From assembly GCA_949287075.1 (NCBI GenBank), contig CASEEU010000083.1, positions 3,039 through 67,038 of the forward strand: a stretch of DNA of 64,000 nucleotides. Reading direction: 5' to 3'. This DNA comes from an uncultured Eubacteriales bacterium. Its GTDB lineage: Bacteria; Bacillota; Clostridia; TANB77; CAG-508. The notes under the pieces were generated by a model that searched no databases, was not told where the DNA came from, and was given only the letters and a program-made list of their open reading frames with translations. Both the position numbers and the translations under genes were made by a program. Of this stretch, positions 3,201 to 43,277 are shown piece by piece (the stretch's first letter is position 1; each line of letters starts with the position of its first letter).

Positions 3201-3289
3201 TATTTCAAGAAGGCCTTTATGAAAAAGTAAGTAGCATTTATGATAATATGTTAAATGATTTATACAAAAATATTCAATTATATAAATAA
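236..3289 (+). CDS. hsdR: Type I restriction enzyme, R (endonuclease/translocase) subunit
   Basis: 1017 aa ORF with RBS AAGGAG upstream. Helicase motif I is HTQGSGKT and motif II is VDEAHRS (DEAH box). Size and position next to hsdM/hsdS are typical of HsdR. Confidence 0.9.
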   Translation: MLVFNEDTRVKIPATIQFLKIGYNYQSLKDDKLDIDFNTKIFINRFKPAIEKINNRELSYDEVKILLDEINNLIKNNDLGKEFYFRLINPQDKLKLIDFENINNNDFAVVDELPFSITPDSDVGSFRPDINILINGMPLAFLEVKKPNNEGGIQKEFKRMINDRLKNFEFKKYFNFIQMVSFSNNMEYEESDEAEDVRAGSFYTTPNGNNTSFSFFREDDELYHINYKYKEINDEKIKDITKDLGYNKNVCDTEEFKTNLNVMTPCNRFVTSVYDKERFLYFLYYGILFVNEKIPQKQIMRYPQFFATRKIIERLEIGGKGGIIWHTQGSGKTALAAYSNRIIKDYYAKKNIVARFFFVVDRIDLLRQTSTEFENRGLSVINCNSKSEFTTELNKSLSTQTLNDSIGEYCVVNIQKFEGEMPEAKNDYNANIQRIFFVDEAHRSYSTNGEFFKNLMVCDNEGVYIALTGTPLLSKKERSNLKFGDYIHKYFYDKSIADGYTLRIKKEDIDTVAKKEIKQNLDIEDNQLDNKDVYESDAYVSALGKFIERDFKNFRFQNTDNSIGGMIVCRTNAQARKVHKWFEENAELKTGLVITDTTDPVQNKINKENQLNFRNDDFPDLLVVNMMLTTGYDVKRLKKMYLLRGPHAQSLLQTISRVNRPYKSPNGRIYRYGYIVDFVDIEEEYNNTIEAYIRELEQDMNDNGENEGSLSGLVVGIDDINKKYQKYLTELKDMIDIDNLEKFSKQLTLMNRDALLKIRRLLNGIRDCETEFIISRVKEQYITVEESEHYKKLRRSVQERIDFTNLTSDTVGMMDVISNEEVVEILYDFIKTKITILDLSKLDIDTDPRVRRFVDTATEVQNVIKHNKNKDDIQVRKLNELLEEVFNKLNISDLDNMDELTEELKEALKKAKEINEKNDELSNIYGGNFAFVKTYQDMIEDSEIDKSDIQRTLRLIFEEISVFYNRDIFLVQGKKNFVDSVKQKLTIKLFQEGLYEKVSSIYDNMLNDLYKNIQLYK

Positions 3290-3295
3290 GGAGTA

Positions 3296-4963
3296 ATGGA
3301 AGTGGAAGAAAGAGTAATACAATTGGAAAACAAAATTAAAGAAATGATTGATGAACTTAAAGGGTTATGTAATACAAATGGTTTATCTAATCAAGCTAGT
3401 GAAGAAGTAGTTATAACATCAACATTCTTGTACAAGTTCTTAAATGATAAATTTATGGCAAACTTAAATGATTTTTCAGTTAAGACAGGAATGTTGATAG
3501 AAGATATACTAAAGAATGAACATAAAGAAATGGAAGTATTTTATAATTCTTATCCTCAAGATGTAGCTTTTATGTATGAAGATACAATTGAATGTTTAAT
3601 TAATAAAAGTACAGATGATAAATTTTATAAATTATTTGATGATGCATTGGAAAGAATTTCTAATTATCCTCAAAATGAAGAATTTAGTATTGATACCTCA
3701 GATGGTGGAAGAAAGCCATTATTTACAAGAATAACAGAAAATGTTGAAGCTTCAAAAAGAAATAATTTTGCAAAAAACATATTTGGAATTATAAGTCAAG
3801 ATAAATTTTCATTTGAACAAGCTTTTAAAGGAAATTTCGATTTTTATAGTGCAATATTTGAATATTTAATAAAAGACTATAATGTTGCAAGTGGAGTTTA
3901 TGCAGAGTATTTCACACCACAGGTTATTTCAAGCACAATTGCTAAAATATTAGTTAATATGTCTCCAGTTGAAGACAAAATATATGAAGTATATGATCCA
4001 GCAGCAGGATCTGGCTCATTGGTATTACATTTAGCAAATGAATTAGGAAAAGGACAATTTGGAGATAAAGCACAAGTATATACACAAGATATTTCTAATA
4101 AATCATCAAGATTCTTAAGAACTAATATGATTTTAAATGGATTAACAAATAGTTTAGACAATATTATAGAGGGAGATACGTTACTAAATCCATCACATTT
4201 TAATGTACCACATGATCCAGACAGTGGAATAAAGAAATTTGATTATGTAACTGCAAATCCACCTTTCAAAACAGACTTTTCTTCTACAAGAGATAAAATT
4301 GAAAGAAATTGGGAAGATACTGATAGATTTTTTGCAGGTATTCCAAAAATACCAGCTAAGGATAAAAAGAAAATGGCTATATATCTATGTTTTATTCAAC
4401 ATATTCTGTATAGTTTAAAGGATGAGGGGAAAGCAGCAATAGTGGTTCCAACAGGTTTTTTAACTGCACAAAGTAGTATAGAAAAATCGATAAGATCTAA
4501 ATTAATTGATAATCATTGGCTAAAAGGTGTTATTTCGATGCCTAGTAATATATTTGCCAATACAGGTACTAATGTTTCTGTTTTGTTTATTGATAAAGTA
4601 AATAAAGAAGATAAAGTAATTCTAATAGATGCTTCAAATTTAGGTAGTAAAGTAAAGGAAGGTAAAAATCAAAAGACAGTATTATCGACTTATGAAGTTA
4701 AAAAAATAGAAGATACATTTATAAATAAAGAGCAAGTTGATGATTTTAGTGTCTTAGTTACATTTGATGAAGTAAAAGAAAAAAATTATTCTTTTAGTGC
4801 AGGTCAGTATTTTAAAATTAAAATTGAATATGTTGAAATGACACAAGAAGAATTTGGCAAAAAAATTAATATGTATAAAAATGAATTAAACAAATTGTTT
4901 GAAGAAAATTCAATATTACAAAAACAAATTAAAGAGAATTTAGAAAAAATAAAATATGAATAG
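3296..4963 (+). CDS. hsdM: Type I restriction-modification system, N6-adenine DNA methyltransferase subunit
   Basis: 555 aa. SAM-binding motif I is DPAAGSGS and catalytic motif IV is NPPF (TANPPFK). It starts 7 nt after the hsdR stop with a GGAG RBS. Confidence 0.9.
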   Translation: MEVEERVIQLENKIKEMIDELKGLCNTNGLSNQASEEVVITSTFLYKFLNDKFMANLNDFSVKTGMLIEDILKNEHKEMEVFYNSYPQDVAFMYEDTIECLINKSTDDKFYKLFDDALERISNYPQNEEFSIDTSDGGRKPLFTRITENVEASKRNNFAKNIFGIISQDKFSFEQAFKGNFDFYSAIFEYLIKDYNVASGVYAEYFTPQVISSTIAKILVNMSPVEDKIYEVYDPAAGSGSLVLHLANELGKGQFGDKAQVYTQDISNKSSRFLRTNMILNGLTNSLDNIIEGDTLLNPSHFNVPHDPDSGIKKFDYVTANPPFKTDFSSTRDKIERNWEDTDRFFAGIPKIPAKDKKKMAIYLCFIQHILYSLKDEGKAAIVVPTGFLTAQSSIEKSIRSKLIDNHWLKGVISMPSNIFANTGTNVSVLFIDKVNKEDKVILIDASNLGSKVKEGKNQKTVLSTYEVKKIEDTFINKEQVDDFSVLVTFDEVKEKNYSFSAGQYFKIKIEYVEMTQEEFGKKINMYKNELNKLFEENSILQKQIKENLEKIKYE

Positions 4964-4974
4964 GAGGAAAACTG

Positions 4975-6120
4975 ATGAAAGAAAATCTTTTTATGAAAGA
5001 ATGTAAGATTTTAAAATTAAAAGATTGTATTAGCCAACTTAATACTGGTTTAAATCCTAGACAAAATTTCTCTTTAGGAAATGGTTCACTGAGGTATATT
5101 ACAGCAAAAAATTTAAACAAATTTGGAACTATAGATTTTACCAAATGCGATTTTATAGACGAAAAAGCTAAAGATATTATCCATAAAAGGTCAGATATTC
5201 AAATAGGAGATATATTATTTTCTAGTAGAGCACCTGTTGGACATTGTCATTTGATACAGAATGAGCCAGATTATTATGATATAGGAGAATCAATTTTTTC
5301 AATAAGGGTAAATCCTAATATTGTATTACCTGAATATATGTGTTTATATCTTTCAAGTGACTATTTTGTCAAATCTGCTTCAAATTATACGACTGGTAGT
5401 GTTATACAAGAAATACGAATTGCTAATTTAATGAATATGGATATAATTATACCTACAAAAGATGTACAAAAGAAGATATCTAATATTATAATAGCTATAA
5501 GTAAAAAAATTGAAAATAATTATAAAATAAATAATAATTTAGAAGAATTGGCTTATACAATTTTTTTACATGATTTTGCTAATAAAACTGCAAATGGAAC
5601 AATTGGAGATATTATAAAAGAAAATGAAAAATCAAAAATAAAAGTAGGAGATGCTAAAGATATCAAAGGAGAATATCCTTTCTTTACAAGTGGCGAGTCA
5701 ATATTAGAATGGAATGATTATTTAACAGATGGAAGAAATTTATTTTTAAACACAGGTGGAAATGCAGATGTTAAGTTCTATGTTGGTAAAGCTACATATT
5801 CAACAGATACATGGTGTATTACATTTAAAAATGAAATGTCAGATTATCTATATTTATATTTAAAAGCAATTAAAAATGAACTAGATAGGAAGTTTTTTCA
5901 TGGATCCGGATTGAAACATTTGCAGAAACCTTTATTTAAGCAAGAAAAAATTTATATACCTAAACAGGAAGAATTAAGAAGGTTTAATATTCAAGTAAAA
6001 ACTATGTTTGATACTATATCATCAAATAAAAGAGAAAATCAAAGATTAAATTCACTAAAAGAGTACTTATTACCACTTTTAATGAATGGACAAATTAATG
6101 TAGATGATATAGAAATTTAG
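4975..6120 (+). CDS. hsdS: Type I restriction-modification system, specificity subunit
   Basis: 381 aa with two target-recognition-like halves separated by a conserved helical spacer (IIIPTKDVQKKISNII...NNLEELAYTIF). A second helical region lies at the C-terminus. It immediately follows hsdM with an AGGAGG RBS. Confidence 0.85.
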   Translation: MKENLFMKECKILKLKDCISQLNTGLNPRQNFSLGNGSLRYITAKNLNKFGTIDFTKCDFIDEKAKDIIHKRSDIQIGDILFSSRAPVGHCHLIQNEPDYYDIGESIFSIRVNPNIVLPEYMCLYLSSDYFVKSASNYTTGSVIQEIRIANLMNMDIIIPTKDVQKKISNIIIAISKKIENNYKINNNLEELAYTIFLHDFANKTANGTIGDIIKENEKSKIKVGDAKDIKGEYPFFTSGESILEWNDYLTDGRNLFLNTGGNADVKFYVGKATYSTDTWCITFKNEMSDYLYLYLKAIKNELDRKFFHGSGLKHLQKPLFKQEKIYIPKQEELRRFNIQVKTMFDTISSNKRENQRLNSLKEYLLPLLMNGQINVDDIEI

Positions 6121-6262: not shown

Positions 6263-7321
6263 ATGGATAAAAAAGAAGATTGGAATTTAGAATTATCAGA
6301 ATATATAAAACAAGGTGAACCAAATCAAGTTGAGAAAACTAAAACATGGGAAACAGCTATAGGTCTGCAAGATGTAGATGGATTGAAACCTTCAAAATAC
6401 TTAATAAAAACTGCTAAGGAACATATTGAAGGAACAATAGATATTGAGGAAGTAAAAGCAAGAATAGATGAATATTATGAAGTTCAAGATAGTAGAAAAA
6501 CCTTTGAAAAAGAGAATGAAGAAGCAGATAAAGTTGCAGTAAGAATAACAGAAATATTAAGCGAAAAAGCATTCATTTTTTCGCCAACAGAACTATTAAA
6601 TATTCATAAAAGATTATTTAAAGATATATTTGATGGGGCAGGAATATACAGGAATTATAATTTTACTAAAAAAGAATGGGTATTAAATGGAGATACAGTA
6701 ATATATGCATCATTTGATACTATAAAAGAAACATTAGAATATGATTTTGAACAAGAAAAAAATTTCTCATATAAAGATTTAAGCTTAGATGAATCTATTA
6801 AACATTTATGTAGATTTACATCAAATATATGGCAAGTACACCCTTTTTGTGAAGGAAACACAAGGACAACAGCAGTATTTATGATAAAATATTTAAGAAC
6901 TTTTGGATTTAATATTAATGATGAAGTATTTGCAGAAAATTCATGGTATTTTAGAAATTCATTAGTAAGAGCTAATTACAAAAATTTTGAAAAAAATGTA
7001 TTCGAGGATACTTCATTTTTAGAAAAATTCTTTTATAACTTGCTAACAAATGCTAATTATGAATTAAAAAATAGGTATACACATATAGATAATATTCAAA
7101 GTGCAAATGAAAATAATTTAAAGGGAAATAATTGCACTTTAGAAGAACAAGCAATAATAAATATATTAAAAATAAATCCAACAACAACTCAAGAAGAAAT
7201 ATCAAGACAGATTAATAAATCTGTAAGAACTGTAAAAAATTATATGGCGGAAATGCAAGAAAAGGGTATAATAGAAAGAAAAAATGGAAAGAAAAATGGT
7301 GAGTGGATAGTAAATGAGTAA
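6263..7321 (+). CDS. Fic/DOC-family protein with C-terminal winged-helix DNA-binding domain
   Basis: 352 aa. Fic active-site-like motif HPFCEGNTRTTA (canonical HxFx[D/E]GNGRxxR, here with G>T and final R>A). The C-terminal ~60 aa (EEQAIINILKINPTTTQEEISRQINKSVRTVKNYMAEMQEKGIIERK) look like a wHTH. Strong AGGAGG RBS. Confidence 0.8.
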   Translation: MDKKEDWNLELSEYIKQGEPNQVEKTKTWETAIGLQDVDGLKPSKYLIKTAKEHIEGTIDIEEVKARIDEYYEVQDSRKTFEKENEEADKVAVRITEILSEKAFIFSPTELLNIHKRLFKDIFDGAGIYRNYNFTKKEWVLNGDTVIYASFDTIKETLEYDFEQEKNFSYKDLSLDESIKHLCRFTSNIWQVHPFCEGNTRTTAVFMIKYLRTFGFNINDEVFAENSWYFRNSLVRANYKNFEKNVFEDTSFLEKFFYNLLTNANYELKNRYTHIDNIQSANENNLKGNNCTLEEQAIINILKINPTTTQEEISRQINKSVRTVKNYMAEMQEKGIIERKNGKKNGEWIVNE

Positions 7322-8300
7322 TAAAAAAGGTATAGCATTTTATTTGGATAGAAAATTTATAGTATGTGAAGAAGAAACTACAAAAGTGCATTCTATGTTA
7401 TTAGATTATAATATAGAAGAGTGCTTTAAAAATATAAAAAATATAGTATATTCATATGATAATAATGATATTATTATCAAAATATTTAGCGATAGTTTAA
7501 TATTTATTTCAGACAAGAGATATGAAAGCGAAGATTGGCAAAAATCAAAAAATAGACTAATAAAATTAGCTAATATTATTTTAGCAGTTATGTTTTCTAC
7601 ATCAAGTGAATATCTTAATATGAAAAAGGGAAGTACTACATTTTTTATACATGATAAAGAAATAACTGTAAAAAATATTATTCATTGTACTGCTAGTAAT
7701 GAATATAATGAGATTGAATTTGTAGGTTGCTATGGAACAATAAAAATAGACGATTTGAAACAAAGGGACGATATAAATGCTTTTGAAAGAAATAATAATA
7801 CAAGTTTCGTATATGATGTAAAGACTATAAATGAGTTTTTTCAACTATTTGAAAAAAACTTAAATTTAATTATTGATAAAAAAATAGAAAATATAGTATA
7901 TATGCTTTATAGAAGTATTTTAGAAACTAAAAAGAGTAATTTTGACATTTCAATATTATTATCTTTTTTCGTTATTGAGAATGTATTAAGCGATATGTGG
8001 GACAATGCTTTGATTGAAAGAGATTTATATAAAAAACTAAAAGACGATATGAATTATACTATTGCTATAAAATCAAATATGTTATATATGAATGGAGTTA
8101 TTTCAAAAGAAGAATTAGATAAAATTGATTTTGCAAGGAAAAAAAGAAATAGTATTGCTCATGCAAATTTTGAATTTCAAGACAAATTTGACTTTTCAAC
8201 AATGTTTAGTATTTCTTCTGAAATATTTTTATTAGCAATAGATTTATTTGCAAAATACTATAATATTAATTTTAAAATGCAATATGGATTCGAAGGATAA
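7314..8300 (+). CDS. Hypothetical protein with C-terminal HEPN-like (Rx4H) putative RNase domain
   Basis: 328 aa. Its start overlaps the fic stop by 8 nt (ATGA-type coupling). The C-terminal helical region carries ARKKRNSIAHANF, i.e. the R-N-x-x-A-H form of the HEPN Rx4-6H motif. The N-terminal ~190 aa are unrecognised. Confidence 0.6.
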   Translation: MSNKKGIAFYLDRKFIVCEEETTKVHSMLLDYNIEECFKNIKNIVYSYDNNDIIIKIFSDSLIFISDKRYESEDWQKSKNRLIKLANIILAVMFSTSSEYLNMKKGSTTFFIHDKEITVKNIIHCTASNEYNEIEFVGCYGTIKIDDLKQRDDINAFERNNNTSFVYDVKTINEFFQLFEKNLNLIIDKKIENIVYMLYRSILETKKSNFDISILLSFFVIENVLSDMWDNALIERDLYKKLKDDMNYTIAIKSNMLYMNGVISKEELDKIDFARKKRNSIAHANFEFQDKFDFSTMFSISSEIFLLAIDLFAKYYNINFKMQYGFEG

Positions 8301-25934: not shown

Positions 25935-26282
25935 CTAATTTTTTATGAAAATAGCAATATCTTTTATAATATTCATAGCCATTTTAATTTCTTTATCGCT
26001 ATATGAACTTAGTAGTTCTTTCGTTTTATCAATAGTTGTATCATCAAGACCATATAAAATATAATCAGCAGAATGACCACTTAAATCTCTAAGTTTTCGA
26101 ATGCTTCTATACATTAAATTTCCTCTACCTTCTTCAACTAATCCAAGGAATTGACTTGATATACCAATTTCTTTTGCTAACTGTGTTTTATTCATATGTA
26201 ACTCATGTTCTCGAATATATTTAATTCTTTTACCTCTCGAAATTTGTTCTTGTTTTTCTAGTTCTAAATCAGATTTATTCAT
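25935..26282 (-). CDS. XRE-family HTH transcriptional regulator
   Basis: 115 aa. MNKTQLAKEIGISSQFLGLVEEGRGN is a classic HTH_3 motif. It is divergent from the response-regulator gene. Confidence 0.8.
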   Translation of the reverse strand: MNKSDLELEKQEQISRGKRIKYIREHELHMNKTQLAKEIGISSQFLGLVEEGRGNLMYRSIRKLRDLSGHSADYILYGLDDTTIDKTKELLSSYSDKEIKMAMNIIKDIAIFIKN

Positions 26283-26436
26283 GAAAATCTCCTCCTATTA
26301 TAAAATCTTAAGTACTAAACTTAATAAATTTTACAATATAATATATTAAAACACATGGTAAAATATTTGTAGAATTATAGTATTTTATGGAGAAATATGG
26401 TAATATTATGAAAAAAAGAAGAAAGGGTGTATACAT

Positions 26437-27225
26437 ATGACAACAAAATCTATGAAAATACTAATAATAGAAGATGATAGAAATGATTGCAACAATTTTA
26501 TTAATAGTGTGAAGAATAGAGATGATGTAGAGATTATTGGAATCACGGATTCAGATGTAGAAGGACTAAAATATGCAAAATTAAAGAAACCAGAAGGTAT
26601 TATATTAGATTTAGAATTAAATAACAGTATGACAGGAAACGCAGATTCTTTGGGATTTTTGTCAGAGCTTAAAAAGTTGAATTTGGGTTATGAACCAATC
26701 ATTGTTGTGACAACACATATTCATTCAAAAAGAATATATGATATCGTTCATAAGAATGGTGCAGATATCATATTATATAAAAATCATCCAAGATATTCAG
26801 CAGACTATGTTTTGAATAAATTAATAAGTTTAAGAGAAGTAACACCAGAAAAAACAATAGAAACTTTAAAAGAAGAATTAGAAGATACTAGGCAAAAGAT
26901 ATCAGATTGCATTGTTAGAGAATTAGACTTAATAGGAATACCTGCTAAAATGGTAGGAAGAAAATATATACATGATGCAATTTTGTATTTGATTGAAAAT
27001 AAAGGAGATAATACAAACGTGATTAGACATTTAACAAATATATACAAAAAATCAGGAAATACAATTACGAATGGTATTCAAAATGCCATTATACATGCAT
27101 GGAATAATACACCAGTAGATGATTTGTTGGAATATTATAGAGCAAGAGTAAGTCTTGAAACTGGTATACCAACACCAATGGAATTTATATATTATTATGT
27201 AGAAAAAGTTGGAAGAGAAGTATAA
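26437..27225 (+). CDS. Response regulator with Spo0A-type C-terminal DNA-binding domain (Spo0A paralogue-like)
   Basis: 262 aa. The receiver domain has IIEDD, the phospho-acceptor ILDLEL, and TTH/K. The C-terminus (IGIPAKMVGRKYIHDAILYL...IQNAIIHAWNN...GIPTPMEFIYY) parallels the Spo0A_C signature (GVPAHIKGY.YLREAI...AIRHAIEVAW...PTNSEFI). Confidence 0.8.
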   Translation: MTTKSMKILIIEDDRNDCNNFINSVKNRDDVEIIGITDSDVEGLKYAKLKKPEGIILDLELNNSMTGNADSLGFLSELKKLNLGYEPIIVVTTHIHSKRIYDIVHKNGADIILYKNHPRYSADYVLNKLISLREVTPEKTIETLKEELEDTRQKISDCIVRELDLIGIPAKMVGRKYIHDAILYLIENKGDNTNVIRHLTNIYKKSGNTITNGIQNAIIHAWNNTPVDDLLEYYRARVSLETGIPTPMEFIYYYVEKVGREV

Positions 27226-27244
27226 GAAATAAAAATCAAAAATG

Positions 27245-27298
27245 AACATATCATAGGTATTAAATTTTTTAGTTGATATTTATGATATGTTTTTTTTT
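27245..27298 (+). terminator. Rho-independent terminator after the response-regulator gene
   Basis: AACATATCATA ... TATGATATGTT stem followed by a run of T. Confidence 0.55.
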
Positions 27299-27375
27299 AT
27301 ATTCGACAAAATTTTACCACTTTTTTTCACTAAAAGCTACCGTCTTTTTTTCGTAAGAAGATGGTAATTTTTTAT

Positions 27376-27404
27376 TTGTAGGAAGTATTACAGCTTTCTA
27401 TAAA
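27376..27404 (+). promoter_or_regulatory. Candidate promoter of the 17-codon peptide gene
   Basis: TTGTAG (27376-27381), 17 nt spacer, TATAAA (27399-27404). Confidence 0.4.
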
Positions 27405-27430
27405 TACGAAAGAAAAAGGTGGTGAGAGGT

Positions 27431-27484
27431 ATGAGAGATTGGTACGATGATTTTTTGGATTGGATATTAGGATGGCTTCCATAG
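27431..27484 (+). CDS. Unannotated 17-aa Trp-rich peptide MRDWYDDFLDWILGWLP (candidate signalling peptide)
   Basis: The ATG is preceded by AAAGGTGGTGAGAGG. A TAG stop is followed 20 nt later by a perfect 12 bp terminator. It has its own candidate promoter and lies between the response regulator and the multi-pass kinase. Confidence 0.5.
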   Translation: MRDWYDDFLDWILGWLP

Positions 27485-27505
27485 TAAATAAATAGTTATA
27501 AGTAA

Positions 27506-27545
27506 AAGGATAATCAATAAAATCTTGATTATCCTTTTATTTTAA
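27506..27545 (+). terminator. Rho-independent terminator after the peptide ORF
   Basis: AAGGATAATCAA-TAAAATC-TTGATTATCCTT (perfect 12 bp stem) followed by TTATTTT. Confidence 0.7.
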
Positions 27546-27557
27546 TATAATATATAA

Positions 27558-29021
27558 ATGGGAGTGATATTTGTGGGAGAAATACAAGCAACAATAGAAT
27601 ATTTTTTTAAAATTAGCTTTATTAGCATATGTACTCTATATTTAAATTATAAGATTTTAAATATCAATGAGAAAAATATAAAAGAAAAAATAAAAATATT
27701 AATACAGGTAGTGATAGTGAATATATTTAGCACAATGTTAAAATATATTTCTAATTCTACAGTAGGTATAATGGTAATAGATGTATTTTTAGCATTAATT
27801 TTCTCGAAAAATATAAATAAGAATATAGGATATTCATTATTAATCACAACAATTTCTTTAAGTATTAATTATATTCTTTATATCCTTTCAGCAGCTATAA
27901 ATTATGTATTGTTTAAAAATTATGCTATTCAAAATAGATACATAGTTTTTATAGTTATTTTATTAGTAGATATTGTTTTATTAAAATTAATATCTGGAAT
28001 AAAAAAGTTTAATAAAGGAATCAGTTTTTTAAAAAAGAATGAAAATAATGAATATTTTGGAATTTTTATATTAAATATAAGTTCAACATTATTTTTTGCT
28101 TTTATAATGATTAATAATCTTGATAGGAGTATAGTAAGACCTTTATTTATATATCTTATCATTTTCTCCATCATCATGTTCATCACCATCCAAAAATCCT
28201 TACAGTTATACTACAAACAAAAACTACAAGAAAGAGAAGTAGAAGAAATCAAAGAAGAACTGAAAAATAAAGATAAAGAAATAAAAGAATTAGAAAAAGA
28301 AAATTTGAAACTTAACAAAAAGAATCATTCAATAGCACATAAACAAAAATCATTGGAATATGAACTAGAACAAATGGTGCTGAATAATCAAGTAGCAGAT
28401 GGAAATCATGTAAAAGATAAAATAGAAAATTTATCAAAAGAAATGCAAAATGAAACTGTCAGTATAGAACTAACGAAAACAAATATTGATGAAATTGATA
28501 GTATGTTAAAATATATGCAATCAGAATGTGTAAAAAATAAAATAGATTTTCAATTACAAGTAAATGGAAATATTCATCATATGGTAAATACATATATTGG
28601 AAAAGAAGATCTAGAAATTCTAATTGCAGACATGATAAAGAATGCCATCATAGCTATTAACCATTCTGAAAATATCAATAAAAGTATTTTAGTAAGATTA
28701 GGATTAATTGATGGTGCATATAGTTTATATGTTTATGATTCTGGTATAGAATTTGAAATAGATACATTAATTAATCTTGGAATAAAACCAAGTACAACAC
28801 ATGCAAATGATGGTGGTACAGGAATGGGATTAATGAATACATTTGATACATTAAAGAAATATAAAGCAAGTTTGGTTATTGATGAATATGGAAAACCAGT
28901 AAAAGACAATTTTACAAAAGTAATAAAAATTCTTTTTGATAATGAAAATACATATAAAATCGAGTCATATCGTAAAAAAGATATACAAGAAAAAGATATA
29001 AATAAAAGGGTTTCTTTTTAA
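27558..29021 (+). CDS. Multi-pass membrane sensor histidine kinase (GHKL ATPase, AgrC/HPK10-like architecture)
   Basis: 487 aa. About 6-7 N-terminal TM helices are followed by a coiled-coil (EVEEIKEELKNKDKEIKELEKENLKLNKK). A candidate phospho-His lies in NHSIAHKQKS, an N-box in ADMIKNAIIAINHS, and a G-box in DGGTGMGL. The GTG at 27573 behind GGGAG is an alternative start. Confidence 0.8.
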   Translation: MGVIFVGEIQATIEYFFKISFISICTLYLNYKILNINEKNIKEKIKILIQVVIVNIFSTMLKYISNSTVGIMVIDVFLALIFSKNINKNIGYSLLITTISLSINYILYILSAAINYVLFKNYAIQNRYIVFIVILLVDIVLLKLISGIKKFNKGISFLKKNENNEYFGIFILNISSTLFFAFIMINNLDRSIVRPLFIYLIIFSIIMFITIQKSLQLYYKQKLQEREVEEIKEELKNKDKEIKELEKENLKLNKKNHSIAHKQKSLEYELEQMVLNNQVADGNHVKDKIENLSKEMQNETVSIELTKTNIDEIDSMLKYMQSECVKNKIDFQLQVNGNIHHMVNTYIGKEDLEILIADMIKNAIIAINHSENINKSILVRLGLIDGAYSLYVYDSGIEFEIDTLINLGIKPSTTHANDGGTGMGLMNTFDTLKKYKASLVIDEYGKPVKDNFTKVIKILFDNENTYKIESYRKKDIQEKDINKRVSF

Positions 29022-29030
29022 GAAACCCTT

Positions 29031-30242
29031 TTAAAATCCAATAATATCGTTATAAATCTCAATTGCAAATTTATCTGTCATACCAGAAATATAGTAAATA
29101 ATACATTTATAAAAATCTTGTTCATTATTGAAATCAAAAATAACATCATTAATTAGTTTTAGTTCTTCTCGATTTCCTAAATCATAATAATTTGCTAAAA
29201 ATCCAAGGAAGCTATCATAAAGTTTTACAGAAATTTTAGATAATCTATTTTTTAAAGTAGAGATTGTATTTTCTTTATCATAACAAGATTTCAAAGTATC
29301 ATATATTTCATTTAAAACTAGTTCAAAATATTTAACAGAAGGTTTTAATCTATCTGAGAAATAGATATTTCTATAATTAAATTCTTTAATTTTATTTAAT
29401 AAATCAAAAGCTTCTTCTGAGAAACATAATCCTTTTTCAGGAGTTGAATTTTTAGCTAAATCACATACTAAATAATTAATAATAATAGTATTGTTAATTT
29501 TCTTTTCAGGTAAATCATAATGTAGCAATTTGTATAGTTCATCCAAATGTTCATCAATAATCCCCAAACTAATGGCATCTTCAATATCTCTTCCAATATA
29601 GGAAATTTTGTCAGAAATTTTTACGACACAGCCTTCCCAAGTATATGGAGCATATTGATTAGGTCTAACATAAGTAGTTAAATCAATATATTCTTGTCTA
29701 GGTTTTAAACAATTTTCATCAATTTCACCACAGTGAGAAATAATACCATCTCTGACAGCATATGTTAAATCTAAATTATCTTTATATTGATCTTTATTTT
29801 CTAATAATTCTATTTTATCTACAAATTCTAGACCATTTTTTTCATGCCAAAAGTTACAACCTAAGTCTCTTTGAGAGATAGTAGATAAAATCTTTTCTCC
29901 CGCATGACCAAAAGGACTATGTCCAATATCATGTGCTACAGAAATTGCTTTTGTTAATTCTGTATTTAATCCTAAATAACTTGCAATTGTATAACTAATG
30001 GATTCTACATGTGCAACATGTTCACTTCTTGTACAAATATGATCACTTTCTGGTGAGAAAAATACTTGTGTCTTATGTTTTAGTCTTTTATAGGCATTTG
30101 AATGTGTAATTCTTGTATAATCTCTGTCAAAAACAGAACGAATATCCTCTGGATTGGTTAGTAAAGGCTTTTGTCTTTTGGATATAGTTTCCCAATTTGG
30201 ATGATGCATATTAGCTGCATAATCTTTAAAAACATTTTCCAT
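29031..30242 (-). CDS. dGTPase-family dNTP triphosphohydrolase-like HD protein
   Basis: 403 aa. FDRDYTRITHSNAYKRLKHKTQVF, TRSEHVAHV and HDIGHSPFGHAGE are hallmark segments of the Dgt/dNTP triphosphohydrolase family. Confidence 0.85.
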   Translation of the reverse strand: MENVFKDYAANMHHPNWETISKRQKPLLTNPEDIRSVFDRDYTRITHSNAYKRLKHKTQVFFSPESDHICTRSEHVAHVESISYTIASYLGLNTELTKAISVAHDIGHSPFGHAGEKILSTISQRDLGCNFWHEKNGLEFVDKIELLENKDQYKDNLDLTYAVRDGIISHCGEIDENCLKPRQEYIDLTTYVRPNQYAPYTWEGCVVKISDKISYIGRDIEDAISLGIIDEHLDELYKLLHYDLPEKKINNTIIINYLVCDLAKNSTPEKGLCFSEEAFDLLNKIKEFNYRNIYFSDRLKPSVKYFELVLNEIYDTLKSCYDKENTISTLKNRLSKISVKLYDSFLGFLANYYDLGNREELKLINDVIFDFNNEQDFYKCIIYYISGMTDKFAIEIYNDIIGF

Positions 30243-31201: not shown

Positions 31202-31346
31202 AATAAAGAGAAAAACAAAGAAAAAGAGAGAAAATAAATGAAATAGTAAAAAATAGAATTGCTAGAAACAAAGAAAATCTGTACTTGTTAAAATATGACA
31301 AAAATGAAATTTGTCATATTTCACATTTATACTGTATAATATATAT

Positions 31347-31987
31347 CGATGGTGCATTATTCTAGTCATACTCAAGTTTATGAGGGTGGGGCTAAAAATC
31401 CACTAAAGGGCATATCGTTGAAGTTCTTTGAATGTGCGCGAAACGCCAAGTTTGTGTGTGTTCAGGGAGTAAGAAATTCGGGTATTATATAATGGCATAT
31501 ATAAGATTCCCTGGTTTCGCGGAGGCTTAAATTTATGATAAATGTATCTTTTTATACATAATTTAAGAGTAACCTGTGATGCGTGCCAAGACACAAAAAG
31601 CACAGAGTAGCCTGTCTTGAGTGAATGTATTGGGATTAAATCATTAGTAAAGCATAGTTTTGGCCAAATTAGTTTTACTGTACTTATGAAATTTCATTTG
31701 CAAAAAAGACTAATAAACTTGTAAAGTATGTTAAGGAAAACTTCTAGAATGTTTGCTTCCATAGAAGCATAGAAGTCTTTGGATTAAGGTACAGATTTAA
31801 GTGGCAATCTGGTAGCTATAGTTTCTATAGATATTTCCCTTAAACGGAAACGGCAATAGCAGTAATGCTATGCGGGAAATAGAGAAATTCAACCAGACCT
31901 AAACTGTAAAATTTACTTAGACTTTTACCATCTCAAATAAAAAATATTAAGAGGAAATCTTGGGAAAAACTCAAAATTTCCTCTTTT
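31347..31987 (+). ncRNA. Large (~640 nt) structured non-coding RNA candidate, OLE-like by size and synteny (family unverified)
   Basis: Promoter: TTGTCA (31311-31316), 18 nt spacer, TGTATAAT (31333-31340). No credible ORF lies on the + strand. G+C is visibly higher than the surroundings. Nested stems are visible, e.g. ACTTCTA[..GCTTC-CATA-GAAGC..]TAGAAGT near 31740-31780, CTATAG-TTT-CTATAG near 31815, and TTTCCC..[GCAATAGCA-GTAA-TGCTATGC]..GGGAAA near 31835-31880. Terminator: AAGAGGAAAT...ATTTCCTCTTTT at 31949-31987. Confidence 0.55.
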
Positions 31988-32105
31988 GAATGATGATTTT
32001 GGGGACGGAGCAAAAAATCATCATTTTGTTCTTTAAAAAGTTTTAAATGAAATATTCTTTATAAAATGGTGATTTTTTGCTCCGTCCCCAAAATCATCAT
32101 TCAAA
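31985..32105. repeat. ~120 nt element made of two 36-38 nt inverted arms, each itself a hairpin
   Basis: TTTGAATGATGATTTTGGGGACGGAGCAAAAAATCATCA (31985-32023) and its near-perfect reverse complement at 32068-32105 differ at one position. The arms are separated by about 44 nt of AT-rich spacer. Confidence 0.7.
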
Positions 32106-32127
32106 AAAAGAAAGGAAAGAGATAAAA

Positions 32128-32844
32128 TTGAAAGAAAAGACGAAAAAAGCAAAAGGAAAACCGTGTGAGGAAGATGCAGAAAAAATAAGACAAGAAATGA
32201 AAAAAGCTGTAAGACAAGAAAGTGCTAAAACAGAAAAAGAGAATGAAAAAGAAATAGAAGAAGTAAAGGAAAAAATAGAACAATCAAAAAGAAAAAAAGA
32301 AAAACAGAACAAGAAATATGAAAATGTGAAATGGTTTATAGAAGTTTTTATTATGACTTTTATATTATCTATTGTGTTTTCATATATATCAACAAATGGG
32401 GTGTCAAATTTAAGTTTAATACCAGCTATCCTGATTTTAGTAGCAGTTATCTTAGTAGGTATCATATTTGACATTGTGGGTGTAGCTGTAACAGTTGCAG
32501 ATGAACATGAATTTCATGCAAAAGCAACGAAAAAAGTAAAAGGTTCAAAAGATTCTATTAAATTAATTAGAAATGCACCTAGAGTTGCCAATATTTGTGC
32601 AGATGTTATTGGTGACATTTGTGGAGTATTAAGTGGTGCCATAAGTGCATTAATTGCACTAAAAATTACCAACCAATTTGGATTAAATTTTGATGTGCAA
32701 TTCTTATTAAGTGCTTTGGTTTCAGCTCTAACAGTTGGTGGAAAAGCATTAGGAAAAACAGTTGCTAATAATAATTCAACTAGAATTGTTCATGCAGTTG
32801 GTATGGTATTTAATAAGTTTAGTAGAAATAAAGATAAAAAATAG
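32128..32844 (+). CDS. Membrane protein with Lys/Glu-rich N-terminal region and four predicted TM helices (OapA-like position)
   Basis: The ORF track starts at 32077, inside the inverted repeat. The TTG at 32128 behind GAAAGGAAAGAG is a more plausible start. The C-terminal half has four hydrophobic helices with conserved-looking acidic residues (IIFDIVGVAVTVADEHE, ICADVIGDICGVLSGA). Confidence 0.6.
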   Translation: MKEKTKKAKGKPCEEDAEKIRQEMKKAVRQESAKTEKENEKEIEEVKEKIEQSKRKKEKQNKKYENVKWFIEVFIMTFILSIVFSYISTNGVSNLSLIPAILILVAVILVGIIFDIVGVAVTVADEHEFHAKATKKVKGSKDSIKLIRNAPRVANICADVIGDICGVLSGAISALIALKITNQFGLNFDVQFLLSALVSALTVGGKALGKTVANNNSTRIVHAVGMVFNKFSRNKDKK

Positions 32845-41436: not shown

Positions 41437-42903
41437 ATGAAGAAATATTCATTAGAAATAACGGTGTTTTTAAGTGGTGCACTAACCATGATGTTAGAGC
41501 TAATTGCAGCAAGAGTATTATCACCATATGTGGGAAGTTCTAATTTGATATGGACGACCATTATAGGAATCATGTTAACAAGTATGAGCATAGGATATTG
41601 GTTTGGTGGAAAAATGGCAGATAAAAATAAAGAAAATGACATAAAGATTTTATCTAATTATTTATTGGTTTCTGCCATTGCAACAAGCATTATACCAATA
41701 CTAGAAGTTATATTTATAGATGTGTTATCGCAACTTTCAAGTAACTTAATTGTTGTTGCTATCATATGTGCAACTGTCACATTTGGAATACCAAGTTTCT
41801 TATTAGCAACTGTATCTCCAATAGCAGTAAAAATAAAAAATAATAGTATGGATCATATAGGTGCAACATCAGGAAAAATATCATCACTATCTACAATAGG
41901 AAGTATTTTTGGTACATTTTTTGCAGGATTTATATTGATACCAAATTTAGGGGTAAGAAATATTATATTAGGATGCTCTATTTTGTTATGGATATTATCT
42001 GTATATCTATTTAACAAAAAGGATAAGAAATATTATATGTTAATGATGGTAGAATTAGTTGTTATTATTGCTCTGAATCTATTAGGAGGATATCTATTTC
42101 AAATAAAAAATCCTGAAATAACAAAAGATGTTGATTCTGAGTATAGTAGAATATGGGTAACAAATCTTAATGTAGATGAAACTACTTATAAGACGCTACA
42201 AGTAGATACAGGTTTAGAATCTTACATAAATCAAGAAACTGGAGAAATGGGAGCAACATATTTATATTATTATGATTTATTTGAATATTATGATAAAGAA
42301 GCAAATAATGCATTGATGATAGGTGGAGCAGCATATACTTATCCAATGCATTATTTAAAAAAATATGAGAATAAAACAATCGATGTTGTAGAAATTGACG
42401 AAAAAATGACACAGATTGCAGAAGAAGAATTTGGACTAGATAAGAACAATCCTAATTTGGGATTAATTACACAAGATGGAAGAAGCTATTTAAATTATAA
42501 TGAGAAAAAATATGATACAGTTTTTATAGATGCGTTTAAAGGTCTAAATGCTCCATTTGAATTAACAACCTATGAGGCTATGCAAAAGGTATATGATAGT
42601 TTAGATGAAAACGGAACAGTCATAACCAATATTATATCAGCAATCGAAGGGAAGGATGCAGACTTTATTAAATATGAATATAGCACATATAAGGCTGTAT
42701 TTGATGATGTAAAAGTATATCAGGTAAATTCAGATCATTTACCAGAAGAAAAGCAAAACTTAATCTTAGTAGGTATTAAAGGAAATGGAAATATAAATAC
42801 TGACAAAGAAGAAGAATATAATGAGTTATTAAGTAATGAAATAAAAGATTTTACGAGTGATAAACAAGTTGTTACAGATGATTATGCACCTATAGGAGAT
42901 TAA
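41437..42903 (+). CDS. Fused multi-pass membrane / spermidine synthase-like (class I methyltransferase fold) protein
   Basis: 488 aa. About 7 N-terminal TM helices precede a C-terminal aminopropyltransferase-like domain (ALMIGGAAYTYP...VVEIDEKM...DTVFIDAF). Confidence 0.7.
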   Translation: MKKYSLEITVFLSGALTMMLELIAARVLSPYVGSSNLIWTTIIGIMLTSMSIGYWFGGKMADKNKENDIKILSNYLLVSAIATSIIPILEVIFIDVLSQLSSNLIVVAIICATVTFGIPSFLLATVSPIAVKIKNNSMDHIGATSGKISSLSTIGSIFGTFFAGFILIPNLGVRNIILGCSILLWILSVYLFNKKDKKYYMLMMVELVVIIALNLLGGYLFQIKNPEITKDVDSEYSRIWVTNLNVDETTYKTLQVDTGLESYINQETGEMGATYLYYYDLFEYYDKEANNALMIGGAAYTYPMHYLKKYENKTIDVVEIDEKMTQIAEEEFGLDKNNPNLGLITQDGRSYLNYNEKKYDTVFIDAFKGLNAPFELTTYEAMQKVYDSLDENGTVITNIISAIEGKDADFIKYEYSTYKAVFDDVKVYQVNSDHLPEEKQNLILVGIKGNGNINTDKEEEYNELLSNEIKDFTSDKQVVTDDYAPIGD

Positions 42904-43043: not shown

Positions 43044-43119
43044 GCGGGAATAGCTCAGTTGATAGAGCGCTGCCTTGCCAAGGCAGAGGTCGCGGGTTTG
43101 AGCCCCGTTTCCCGCTCCA
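43044..43119 (+). tRNA. tRNA-Gly (anticodon GCC)
   Basis: The cloverleaf was read by eye: acceptor GCGGGAA/TTCCCGC, D-arm GCTC..GAGC, anticodon stem CTGCC/GGCAG with loop TTGCCAA, T-arm GCGGG-TTTGAGC-CCCGT, and an encoded CCA. Confidence 0.9.
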
Positions 43120-43202: not shown

Positions 43203-43277
43203 GGCGACATAGCCAAGTGGCTAAGGCACGAGTCTGCAAAACTCTGATCCCCGGTTCGAATCCGGGTGTCGCCTCCA
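43203..43277 (+). tRNA. tRNA-Cys (anticodon GCA)
   Basis: Acceptor GGCGACA/TGTCGCC, anticodon loop CTGCAAA, T-arm CCGGG-TTCGAAT-CCGGG with GTTCGAATC, and an encoded CCA. Confidence 0.9.

Follow-up and report, generated by a model that had tools for sequence, protein, structure and literature searches.

A never-annotated tryptophan-rich peptide and the membrane part of its neighbouring sensor kinase form matched variant cassettes in a candidate signalling module with a Spo0A-like regulator

Main finding

Our analysis identified, in an uncultured gut Clostridium, a four-gene signalling module in which a 17-residue tryptophan-rich peptide that has never been annotated and the membrane part of the adjacent sensor kinase are swapped together, as matched variant cassettes, between otherwise identical strains. 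This pattern is the hallmark of a strain-specific cell-to-cell signalling system, here wired to a relative of the sporulation master regulator Spo0A. The module lies within a 64-kb stretch of DNA (hereafter, the window) and comprises an XRE repressor-like gene, a response regulator (RR) with a Spo0A_C domain, a 17-codon open reading frame (ORF), and a histidine kinase (HK) with seven predicted transmembrane (TM) helices. An earlier sequence-only reading had described these four elements, and all of them are present as described. Its interpretation, a peptide-sensing circuit wired to a Spo0A paralogue, was supported by our data, although its "HPK10/AgrC-like" label for the kinase holds only for layout.

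Components of the module

The XRE/Cro-CI-type regulator (25935-26282, minus strand; 115 aa) matched Pfam HTH_3 at 23.2 bits, essentially at the gathering score, and the 434 repressor was its closest solved relative in a sequence search of the PDB. The gene is a conserved member of the module and is usually divergent from the RR gene.

The RR (26437-27225, plus strand; 262 aa) matched Pfam Spo0A_C over residues 161-257 (E=2.9e-12), whereas its Response_reg score of 28 bits was just under the gathering score. Receiver residues E12, D13, D58, T92/93, and K115 are invariant in 52 orthologues, and the helix SGNTITNGIQNAIIHAW is nearly invariant. A hairpin followed by a T-run after the stop codon (27245-27298, plus strand), conserved in position in the alignment of upstream regions, is the terminator of the RR gene.

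Whether the RR was simply the canonical Spo0A of the organism had been named in advance as a point that would overturn the idea of a paralogue. The protein aligned end to end with NCBIfam Spo0A (TIGR02875) but scored only 74 bits against a cut-off of 200. It aligned with the Spo0A C-domain structure 1LQ1 (6.4e-5), with about 28% identity to the DNA-binding domain of B. subtilis Spo0A, which is normally highly conserved, and with a different recognition helix. The view that the module is the ordinary sporulation-initiation switch, with the kinase as a sporulation kinase, could draw on the full-length REC + Spo0A_C architecture, on the 0A-like boxes nearby, and on the lack of any other spo0A in the window or in any fetched locus, to which the search for spo0A was confined. 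However, an adjacent cognate kinase, XRE gene, and peptide is not the spo0A context, and no sporulation gene was recognised among the window proteins scanned. We consider this view very unlikely.

The 17-codon ORF (27431-27484, plus strand) encodes MRDWYDDFLDWILGWLP behind the strong Shine-Dalgarno (SD) sequence AAAGGTGGTGA (27415-27425, plus strand). It is followed by a hairpin terminator (27504-27543, plus strand; AAAAGGATAATCAA...TTGATTATCCTTTT with a T-run) that recurs in distant loci and whose GATAATCA/TGATTATC arms are conserved in many species. A TATAAT -10 box for a separate kinase promoter lies at 27546-27551 (plus strand), and a TATAAT-like hexamer was found between the peptide terminator and the kinase start in all 21 loci inspected.

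The kinase (27558-29021, plus strand; 487 aa) probably starts at GTG 27573, behind GGGAG, as called on an identical contig. Its N-terminal sensor domain (27558-28172, plus strand) has seven TM helices, as predicted from hydropathy and seen as helices in the AF2 model, with an N-out/C-in orientation by the positive-inside rule. The highly conserved cytoplasmic core (28173-29021, plus strand) consists of a long DHp helix and an alpha/beta GHKL catalytic domain, with invariant H257 and H261, N362, DxG 394-396, and GGTGMG 419-424. The Pfam HATPase_c hit was weak (20.9 bits), a profile search hit RsbW, and Foldseek matched the fold to the solved histidine kinases HK853, DesK, CpxA, and ZraS. The sequence-only reading had proposed HATPase_c_5 and a SpoOB-type dimerisation domain as checks on the kinase; no member of the family matched HATPase_c_5, any HisKA model, or SPOB_a. 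A GC-containing hairpin (29003-29033) between the convergent kinase and dGTPase genes is the terminator that closes the module.

Conservation of the peptide gene

The RR and XRE genes both lie next to the kinase in 61 of 77 species-level genomes of uncultured gut Clostridia, while the flanking genes change; four loci lack an adjacent RR, four lack an adjacent XRE, and one lacks both. A wider search for the kinase recovered 216 clusters at E<=1e-30 among 1.84 billion representatives, with uniform architecture. Relatives whose kinase core is only 31-33% identical, from organisms of 35-56% GC, keep XRE + RR(Spo0A_C) + HK and also carry a strong-SD small ORF and direct repeats upstream of the kinase.

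Conservation of the small ORF had been put forward beforehand as the key test of the peptide idea, and the result was strongly positive. An equivalent ORF was found in 71 of the 74 loci with upstream sequence on the first scan, with a nearly invariant SD sequence, and in the remaining three on closer inspection, which is far beyond chance. These ORFs encode 13-20 aa with the core W-[YF]-[DE]-x-[FL]-x-x-W-[ILV]-x-x-W-[LIM], and gene callers never call them. The codon pattern is that of a coding sequence, with the second position fixed and the third free at the D/E, F/L, and I/L/V columns. The product is leaderless, acidic, Trp-rich, and amphipathic (z=2.5 against shuffles), and some loci carry two to three tandem peptide genes, whereas some carry orphan RR-HK pairs without a peptide, as expected for pheromone and eavesdropping arrangements.

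The three conserved single-codon Trp positions and the terminator between the ORF and the kinase could indicate a leader peptide without a function of its own, at which ribosome stalling would control read-through into the kinase gene, as in trp-type attenuation. This appears very unlikely, since non-Trp positions are constrained at the level of amino acid properties (acidic at columns 2, 5, and 6, and hydrophobic with T at the second codon position) and the Trp codons are spaced i, i+7, i+11, a helical stripe and not a cluster. In addition, the ORF co-varies with the kinase TM domain, the kinase has its own TATAAT box, the downstream gene has no link to Trp metabolism, and distant relatives have small ORFs without Trp.

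An alternative in which the peptide is primarily an antimicrobial or membrane-active effector (a leaderless bacteriocin or PSM-like peptide), with the two-component system as its autoinducing regulator as for nisin-NisKR or plantaricin A, also seems unlikely. It would fit the leaderless, Trp-rich, and amphipathic character of the product, its stand-alone, strongly translated transcription unit with its own terminator, and the multi-copy peptide genes of some loci. However, the peptides are short and mostly net negative (-1 to -3), whereas known leaderless bacteriocins are cationic and 30-50 aa long, and no immunity or ABC transporter genes occur in the conserved module.

Matched variation of peptide and sensor

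Peptide distance was correlated with sensor distance (Mantel r=0.51, p<=0.0005), and the correlation persisted given the RR (partial r=0.48), whereas that between peptide and catalytic domain given the sensor was not significant (r=0.07). The sensor is hypervariable, with a mean divergence of 0.64 against 0.31 for the core. Its entropy was higher on the predicted extracellular side (2.17/2.52 against 1.77/1.86 bits, p=1e-4), although this bias is modest, the predicted extracellular loops are only 3-11 residues long, and variability also runs through the whole of TM helices 2, 3, and 5. In contrast, the XRE protein is 100% identical across the alleles.

Contigs encoding an identical RR carry either peptide MDEWIELFWQWVSKWI or peptide MGELFDEFLDWIRKWLI, with sensors that are 34% identical and catalytic domains that are 100% identical, and the same peptide always goes with an identical sensor. 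Nucleotide identity is 100% for kilobases on both sides and about 50% within a cassette of approximately 0.75 kb (~770 bp), running from the peptide start to about kinase codon 200 (27420-28150 in the window, plus strand). This was the case between L083 and L084 (handles denote individual loci of our set), and L004 versus L006 and L024 versus L028 showed the same; identity between the window and L079 was 100% up to about 27390, 20-75% through about 28150, and 90-98% thereafter. This is pherotype polymorphism as in agr or comQXP, and co-variation together with such allelic exchange is stronger evidence for a ligand-receptor pair than was within reach of the sequence-only reading.

The co-variation would nevertheless fit any direct binding partner, and it is possible, though we think it doubtful, that the peptide is a cell-autonomous modulator of the kinase in the style of MgrB/SafA-PhoQ or Sda-KinA, lying at the cytoplasmic membrane interface and tuning kinase activity in the producer. 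The absence of a leader, exporter, or processing gene, a 16-residue amphipathic Trp-rich helix suited to a membrane interface, and variability through whole TM helices rather than only the loops are compatible with this view. Those modulators are likewise tiny proteins that act directly on a sensor kinase and are often missed by annotation, but they are not allelic cassettes with the sensor domain, are not encoded as kinase-linked pherotypes, and act within the producing cell. Discrete alternative cassettes kept in otherwise identical genomes are the pattern of social or discriminatory signals such as agr, comQXP, and blp, and are hard to explain for a private intracellular interaction. The tandem peptide genes and orphan RR-HK pairs also speak against it, and unlinked exporters (PptAB) are the rule for other leaderless streptococcal pheromones.

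Regulatory sequences upstream of the peptide gene

Tandem 0A-box-like direct repeats (27302-27319, plus strand; TTCGACA-N4-TTTACCA, 11-bp period) are the candidate binding site of the RR, or of Spo0A, at the peptide promoter and suggest autoinduction. They are the only match to TTCGNCA-N4-TTYRNCA in 64 kb (0.02 expected). Strict TGNCGAA boxes numbered 38 in 72 upstream regions against 1.3 in shuffles, 36 of them in one orientation, although these counts are inflated by shared ancestry. The sequence-only reading had suggested that the RR could compete at 0A boxes, and here the evidence points both ways: the recognition helix differs from that of Spo0A, such that the boxes could instead be bound by the genuine Spo0A, yet the repeats do lie upstream of the peptide gene. 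Analogous direct repeats with a 10-11 bp period but a different sequence occur in distant relatives.

Between the repeats and the SD sequence lies a conserved RNA stem-loop (TACCGTCTT...AAGATGGTA) followed by a U-tract (27338-27374, plus strand), which was also detected as a terminator-like site (27338-27366) and is either a 5' leader hairpin or an attenuator. In the alignment, 84.7% of cells are paired against 39-57% when slid, 7 of 12 pairs change on both sides, and a conserved G.U pair fits only the plus-strand RNA. This hairpin lies between the putative promoter and the ORF, and no expression data exist. A possible sigma-A promoter (27376-27404, plus strand; TTGTAG-17-TATAAA) is weakly supported, as it was seen only in this allele group and is not conserved in distant loci, and the main promoter may instead lie at the repeats upstream of the hairpin.

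Proposed mechanism

With moderate confidence, we propose a self-contained, strain-polymorphic peptide signalling module of the quorum-sensing type. In this model, the 17-codon gene would be translated into a leaderless, unprocessed or minimally processed amphipathic peptide that reaches the outer face of the membrane by an export route not encoded in the module. There it would bind the 7-TM bundle of its own allele of the kinase and change autophosphorylation at the conserved DHp histidine (H257, possibly H261), and the phosphate would pass to D58 of the RR. The phosphorylated RR would bind the tandem TTCGNCA-type repeats at the peptide promoter, giving positive feedback, and an unknown regulon, with the small XRE protein as a co-regulator, probably a repressor of the module. 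Specificity would lie in the variable peptide positions and TM residues, such that strains sharing the RR and kinase core fall into non-cross-talking pherotypes.

Our computations demonstrated that the ORF is real and conserved, that peptide and sensor co-vary and are allelic as one cassette, that the RR is an intact REC + Spo0A_C protein distinct from Spo0A, that the kinase core is intact, and that the repeats and leader hairpin are conserved. Secretion, the direction of the effect (activation or inhibition), phosphotransfer, the DNA target, and the regulon are inferred; all the organisms are uncultured, and no signal peptide, leader, processing enzyme, or exporter was found in the module. 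The residues for phosphotransfer are intact in both HK and RR.

Comparison with related systems

We regard the module as a form of peptide/two-component quorum sensing that is new, and it was compared with individual known systems. As in staphylococcal and clostridial agr (AgrB-AgrD-AgrC-AgrA), the peptide is encoded next to a polytopic (6-7 TM) kinase without an extracytoplasmic domain, the peptide gene and sensor domain form a hypervariable cassette with sharp boundaries against a conserved kinase core and regulator, giving intraspecific specificity groups, and an autoinduction site probably lies at the peptide promoter. In contrast to agr, there is no AgrB-like gene, an absence that the sequence-only reading had noted and that we confirmed, no conserved Cys and so no thiolactone, and no propeptide, the ORF being essentially the conserved core. 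AgrC is not among the sequence or structure hits of the kinase, the output domain is Spo0A_C and not LytTR, with no LytTR partner present, and the peptide, kinase, and RR each have their own terminator or promoter rather than forming one operon.

Bacillus ComQXPA likewise combines a polymorphic pheromone and N-terminal multi-TM part of the kinase with a conserved kinase C-terminus and regulator, and a Trp residue is essential in ComX. However, the present module has no ComQ isoprenyl transferase, its 13-20-aa peptide has no pro-region, its regulator is not of the NarL/LuxR type, and its kinase has no HisKA_3 match. With Spo0A and the clostridial orphan sporulation kinases, the module shares the REC + Spo0A_C architecture, TGNCGAA-like boxes at a target promoter, and plausible direct kinase-to-regulator signalling without a phosphorelay, but it has a dedicated adjacent kinase with no PAS domains.

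The streptococcal leaderless or short hydrophobic pheromones (SIP-RopB, SHP-Rgg, and ComS/XIP-ComR) are also very short ribosomal peptides without a canonical signal or leader, SIP being described as a "secreted leaderless peptide signal" (PMC6565748). Type II ComS has a Trp-rich C-terminus, the exporter is encoded elsewhere, and an XRE-family HTH gene is linked. Those peptides are re-imported and bind cytosolic RRNPP/Rgg receptors of about 280 aa, whereas the XRE protein here has only 115 aa, has no peptide-binding repeat domain, and is not hypervariable, and the partner that co-varies with the peptide is a membrane histidine kinase.

Genomic setting and components of the module

The window, with a G+C content of about 25%, has its closest relatives among metagenome-assembled genomes (MAGs) labelled uncultured Clostridia, Clostridium sp. 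or Eubacteriales from chicken, rabbit, goat, mouse, and human (Hadza, Nepal) guts. The genes around the module are housekeeping genes: a low-molecular-weight phosphatase, a YgjP-like protein, the MnmL/YtqA tRNA radical-SAM enzyme, a dGTPase, OLE RNA, lactate dehydrogenase, DinB, topoisomerase I, and a type I restriction system. This synteny is kept in close relatives, and the locus is therefore chromosomal and not an obvious mobile element. The kinase core returned no hit in the plasmid collection, and the regulator returned only ~22%-identical hits in phage-like gut contigs. Unannotated "Bacteriophage sp." contigs from human faeces (hits H1-H8 of the phage collection; MT835781.1 and others) encode full-length REC + Spo0A_C-like proteins about 21-26% identical to this regulator, in agreement with a report that PF08769 is enriched on gut Firmicutes mobile elements (PMC6907783), the only context in which we found Spo0A_C paralogues mentioned. 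The nearby radical-SAM gene was considered as a peptide-modifying enzyme and rejected, since its product is an MnmL/YtqA tRNA enzyme (304 bits against a cut-off of 180) and the gene is not linked to the module in distant loci.

All four elements described in the sequence-only reading, namely an XRE gene, a Spo0A-type response regulator (RR), a 17-codon ORF, and a multi-pass kinase (HK), are present. The XRE gene (25935-26282, minus strand) encodes a 115-aa protein with only HTH_3 and Cro/CI-type (434-repressor) similarity; it lacks the TPR-like peptide-binding domain of about 200 aa that is fused to the HTH in RRNPP/Rgg cytosolic peptide receptors. The regulator (26437-27225, plus strand) carries a receiver domain (Response_reg, 28 bits) followed by a Spo0A_C DNA-binding domain (Pfam, E=2.9e-12), and the receiver residues E12, D13, D58, T92/93, and K115 are invariant across 52 orthologues. 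It aligns end to end with the NCBIfam Spo0A equivalog model TIGR02875 (positions 2-255 of 262) but scores 74.2 bits against the curated cut-off of 200, and it is about 28% identical to the B. subtilis Spo0A DNA-binding domain. In the alignment to 1LQ1, the putative recognition helix reads NTITNGIQNAIIHAW instead of the B. subtilis ...SRVERAIRHAIEVAW, with replacement of the Arg/Glu/Arg positions that reportedly contact bases in that structure; the helix SGNTITNGIQNAIIHAW is itself nearly invariant within this family.

That the regulator might simply be the canonical Spo0A of the organism had been named beforehand as a point that would overturn the proposal, and both the scores and the context contradict this idea, which we consider very unlikely. 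Canonical spo0A is an orphan regulator gene in a sporulation neighborhood (spoIVB-spo0A), whereas the neighbors here are the XRE gene, the peptide gene, and the kinase gene, set among housekeeping genes. A search for a genuine spo0A, also proposed in advance, was performed with the B. subtilis Spo0A C-domain and found only this RR in the window and in the 77 loci described below, whole MAGs not being covered. No sporulation gene was recognized among about 45 window proteins scanned, whole MAGs again not being covered, and whether these organisms sporulate was not determined.

The kinase gene (27558-29021, plus strand), probably starting at GTG 27573, encodes a protein with seven predicted transmembrane (TM) helices and no extracytoplasmic domain, in which TM7 runs straight into a long DHp helix followed by an alpha/beta catalytic domain. 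The residues H257, H261, N362, D394xG396, and the GGTGMG motif (419-424) are invariant, as expected of two-component histidine kinases. The sequence-only reading had labelled this kinase HPK10/AgrC-like, and a profile search for the corresponding catalytic domain had been suggested as a check. The polytopic layout agrees with this label, but none of 27 members matches HATPase_c_5 (Pfam PF14501) at E<=1; only HATPase_c and HATPase_c_2 hit weakly, and no NCBIfam model was matched. A profile search of the PDB found RsbW and KinB only, and Foldseek on an AF2 model (pLDDT 70) returned ordinary histidine kinases, such as HK853, DesK, CpxA, and ZraS, with AgrC not among the top 50 hits; the AgrC-family label was therefore rejected. 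Furthermore, the regulator carries Spo0A_C instead of a LytTR output domain, also in distant relatives, and the linked peptide gene has no leader and no processing or export gene (AgrB or a C39-ABC transporter) in or near the module.

A conserved small ORF upstream of the kinase

Conservation of the small ORF in relatives had been set out in advance as a key test, and the ORF is real. The 17-codon ORF (27431-27484, plus strand; MRDWYDDFLDWILGWLP) follows a strong Shine-Dalgarno sequence (SD) and lies between hairpin terminators. One genome per species (GTDB) was scanned with the kinase alignment, which yielded 77 loci (these and further loci are denoted by L numbers). An ORF of 13-20 codons behind AAAGGTGGTGA lies upstream of the kinase in 71 of the 74 loci that have upstream sequence, and the other three have it as well, after an inserted gene or in the first of two tandem modules. 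The aligned core is x-[D/S/E]-W-[F/Y/W]-[D/E]-[A/E/D]-[F/L/M]-x-x-W-[L/I/V]-x-x-W-[L/I/M], followed by 0-3 residues, and the shortest version starts at the conserved core (MWDDFWRWVSKWF), so there is no leader. Only 9 of 72 peptides contain Cys, which excludes a thiolactone as a family feature. The codon pattern is that of a protein, the second base being fixed and the third free at the D/E, F/L, and I/L/V columns. The peptides are amphipathic helices (hydrophobic moment z=2.5 against shuffles) with an aromatic stripe (W, F/L, W, W at i, i+4, i+7, i+11), and most carry a net charge of -1 to -3. Public gene calls on 20 contigs never include this ORF.

The small size and negative charge of these peptides, together with the lack of immunity or transporter genes, disfavor the possibility that they act as autoinducing antimicrobial peptides, which we regard as improbable. 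The idea that the ORF is a Trp leader-peptide attenuator was rejected, being contradicted by the constraint at the amino acid level, by the covariation with the sensor domain described below, and by the kinase's own promoter; we consider its likelihood remote.

Both the RR and XRE genes lie next to the kinase gene in 61 loci, whereas four loci have the RR only, four have the XRE only, and one has neither within reach. The order is usually XRE(<) RR(>) peptide(>) HK(>), although in some species it is RR(>) XRE(<) peptide(>) HK(>). In distant species the flanking genes differ, so the module is the conserved unit, and no additional conserved gene, such as one for a ComQ isoprenyl transferase, was found in the module across loci. 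In several species (L005 3651-4571, L010 3539-4447, L014 3622-4530, L026 3713-4642, and L070 3581-4534), a ~302-aa ORF (MSNLKKQKEVEMLPLSNDYVFKRIFGKGGNE...) is inserted between the RR and peptide genes, separating the RR from the peptide promoter without removing either. This ORF may encode an Rpn/PD-(D/E)XK transposase-like protein, although no family scan was run on it; a PDDEXK_2 gene also lies near the distant module in L093. Some loci (L040 1-588, L051, and L067) have two or three peptide genes in tandem, and two loci carry a second RR-HK pair without a peptide gene. In the tandem duplicated modules (L051, 294-3318 and 3603-6368; L067, 464-3349 and 3653-6386), the first module carries 2-3 peptide genes in a row, each with its own repeats, hairpin, and terminator, whereas the second RR-HK pair has no peptide gene and so looks like an orphan receptor. 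One L051 peptide copy has lost the upstream Trp residues (MNDLLHQFALFIKRWI). These organizations resemble multi-pheromone and orphan-receptor arrangements.

An exhaustive HMMER search with the kinase core found 216 clusters (50% identity) at E<=1e-30 and 793 at E<=1e-10, nearly all of which are 470-510 aa with the core starting near residue 200. Four members only 31-33% identical to the window kinase core come from organisms of 35-56% GC. Three of the four again sit next to an XRE gene and an RR with Spo0A_C, whereas the fourth (L094) is on a 3.4-kb contig that holds neither. All four have a strong-SD small ORF upstream of the kinase (MWGWVAAWGTWASGLARR, MWGWLARVVFR, MATFMAIWQYVCDCFRDVFK, and MRIFGIIGNALRHALRR), although these distant ORFs are candidates only, since each rests on a single sequence. 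Direct repeats with a 10-11 bp period precede the ORF in three of them, with different sequences: AACGACA x3-4 in L094 (216-597), TTTGCAT x3 in L095 (3506-4001), and CTTGAAC x2-3 in L098 (1676-2125), as if the regulator's DNA specificity had drifted with the family.

The peptide and the sensor domain vary as a matched, exchangeable pair

Our central result is that the peptide and the kinase sensor domain covary and segregate as discrete alleles against conserved signaling parts. Across 52 complete loci, the kinase TM domain (mean divergence, 0.64) and the peptide (0.61) diverge twice as fast as the kinase core (0.31) and the regulator (0.32). Peptide distance correlates with sensor distance in a Mantel test (r=0.51, p<=0.0005), and the correlation survives control for the regulator (partial r=0.48), whereas the correlation of the peptide with the catalytic domain, given the sensor, is r=0.07. 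The species pair L004 and L006 has identical regulators and 98%-identical kinase cores but sensors that are 53% divergent and different peptides. At the nucleotide level, the DNA is about 100% identical through XRE, RR, and the peptide promoter, drops to 51-70% identity exactly at the peptide ORF, and recovers to 96-100% near kinase codon 190.

Contigs that all encode exactly one regulator protein, designated P0001 and 96% identical to the window RR, carry one of two alleles, with peptide MDEWIELFWQWVSKWI or MGELFDEFLDWIRKWLI. The sensors of these alleles are 34% identical and their catalytic domains 100% identical, and the flanks are 100% identical for kilobases around a ~770-bp cassette at about 50% identity. 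Contigs with the window's own regulator protein carry three alleles (MRDWYDDFLDWILGWLP, MDWYEDFLNWVRDWLF, and MDWFEDFLNWIRDWVF). In every comparison, the same peptide goes with an identical sensor. This is the pattern known from the agr specificity groups and the comQXP pherotypes, and it is what a ligand-receptor pair under diversifying or balancing selection is expected to look like. A cell-autonomous modulator of the MgrB/Sda kind would explain the lack of export genes but not the discrete alleles in otherwise identical genomes, and we consider this alternative unlikely, although it is the strongest of the rivals.

By the positive-inside rule, the N-terminus of the kinase is outside and the K-rich loops (35-46, 87-89, and 147-164) are inside. 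The predicted outer TM halves and outer loops are more variable than the inner ones (2.17/2.52 against 1.77/1.86 bits, p=1e-4). However, TM2, TM3, and TM5 vary along their whole length. These data mildly favor recognition from the outer leaflet without proving it.

Regulatory DNA and RNA

After the RR terminator come tandem boxes, TTCGACA-N4-TTTACCA (27302-27319), the only match to the pattern in 64 kb, with 0.02 expected. Across 72 loci, the strict 0A-box consensus TGNCGAA occurs 38 times in the 110-nt upstream segments, against 1.3 in shuffles, a count that is inflated by shared ancestry; 36 of the 38 are in the same orientation, often as tandems with an 11-bp period. A TATnAT-like -10 element follows in many loci, including L051, whereas a general promoter scan was uninformative in DNA of 25% GC (50 sites found against 47 expected), and the transcription start was not mapped. 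Next comes a stem-loop plus U-tract (27338-27374). RNAalifold predicted no consensus structure for this hairpin, but the structure supplied by hand passed the pair counts: 84.7% of its cells are paired, against 39-57% when slid, seven of 12 pairs change on both sides, and a conserved G.U pair fits only the plus-strand RNA. It may be a 5' stabilizing hairpin or an attenuator, and our data do not distinguish the two. After the peptide gene come a terminator and then a TATAAT box in front of the kinase in all 21 loci inspected, so that the description of the ORF in the sequence-only reading as separately promoted and terminated is reasonable.

The terminator after the peptide gene (window 27504-27543) keeps the same arm sequence (GATAATCA...TGATTATC) at the equivalent positions in quite distant species (L004, L016, L017, L029, L030, L037, L039, L044, and L051), whereas other species use a different conserved stem (AAGCAATATAAG...CTTATATTGCTT). 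Sequence conservation of a terminator stem that overlaps the -35 region of the kinase promoter suggests that it may also be a protein operator, perhaps for the XRE protein.

Proposed mechanism and comparison with known systems

The interpretation of the locus as a candidate peptide-sensing circuit wired to a Spo0A paralogue is supported. In the mechanism that we consider most likely, and hold with moderate confidence, the peptide is made without a leader, is released by an unlinked route, and binds the TM bundle of its cognate kinase allele, changing phosphorylation of the DHp histidine. The phosphate would then pass to D58 of the Spo0A-like regulator, which would act on the tandem boxes at the peptide promoter (autoinduction) and on an unidentified regulon, with the XRE protein as a co-regulator. 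The genetic signatures that motivate this scheme come directly from our sequence comparisons, whereas each step from leaderless synthesis to action on the boxes is an inference: secretion and allele-specific action on the receptor were not assayed, the export route was not identified, and neither modification of the peptide nor whether it activates or inhibits the kinase was determined. We hold with high confidence the weaker claim that the peptide is the direct specificity partner of the kinase sensor domain.

The module resembles agr or comQXP, with a linked peptide, a polytopic kinase, a hypervariable cassette, and probable autoinduction. However, it belongs to neither system, having no HATPase_c_5, no LytTR, no AgrB or ComQ, and no propeptide. 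It shares leaderless peptides with the streptococcal SIP-RopB, SHP-Rgg, and ComRS systems (PMC6565748), but those use cytosolic RRNPP receptors, whereas here the XRE protein is too small and is not variable. Full-text literature searches found no description of this module. We therefore regard it as peptide/two-component quorum sensing that differs from the described systems in a kinase family not captured by Pfam or NCBIfam and in an unusual output domain.

A broader reading, which we consider slightly more likely than not, is that the module represents a previously unrecognized class of Gram-positive cell-cell signaling, in which leaderless, essentially unprocessed 11-20-residue peptides would be sensed directly by a new family of 7-TM histidine kinases (about 200-800 clusters at 50% identity share this one architecture) that signal to Spo0A_C-type regulators, with intraspecific pherotype cassettes. 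Such a system would be widespread in uncultured Clostridia of animal, human, and termite guts and invisible in current annotation because the peptide gene is never called. In lineages that may have lost sporulation, this Spo0A-like branch could be what couples population sensing to the former Spo0A-type regulatory logic. Peptide pheromone systems with specificity groups (agr, com, blp, and comQXP) are central models for bacterial social behavior, agr being a drug target, and all of them pair a processed peptide with a known kinase family and a LytTR or NarL regulator. This module would add a structurally different solution, with no leader, no maturation enzyme, a kinase matching no Pfam dimerization or AgrC-type model, and an output domain otherwise known almost only from the sporulation master regulator. 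It occurs in dozens of uncultured gut species, where almost nothing is known about communication, and it gives directly testable peptide-receptor pairs, since the natural allele pairs have identical downstream parts. It also shows that sub-20-codon genes missed by gene callers can be the key component of a system, and it provides a natural experiment on how Spo0A-type DNA-binding domains diversify.

Other features of the window

A full-length OLE (ornate large extremophilic) RNA (31333-31947, plus strand), scoring 342 bits against a gathering score of 50, lies just downstream of the module in this gut-associated, 25% GC Clostridium, and an ORF with no family match (32077-32844) follows it where OLE-associated protein genes usually lie. 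The YifB/ComM-type Mg-chelatase-like AAA ATPase gene is split into two adjacent ORFs (11142-11993 and 12013-12675, minus strand), which match model positions 3-217 and 226-499, reflecting a frameshift, a stop codon, or an assembly error; dprA lies next to it at 10045-10896. A complete type I restriction-modification operon (236-6120, plus strand; HsdR, 1017 aa; HsdM, 555 aa; HsdS, 381 aa) lies at the start of the window, followed by two ORFs without family matches at 6263-8300. A fused MFS transporter/spermidine synthase (41437-42903, plus strand; NF037959, 260 bits) is followed by two tRNA genes at 43044-43116 and 43203-43274.
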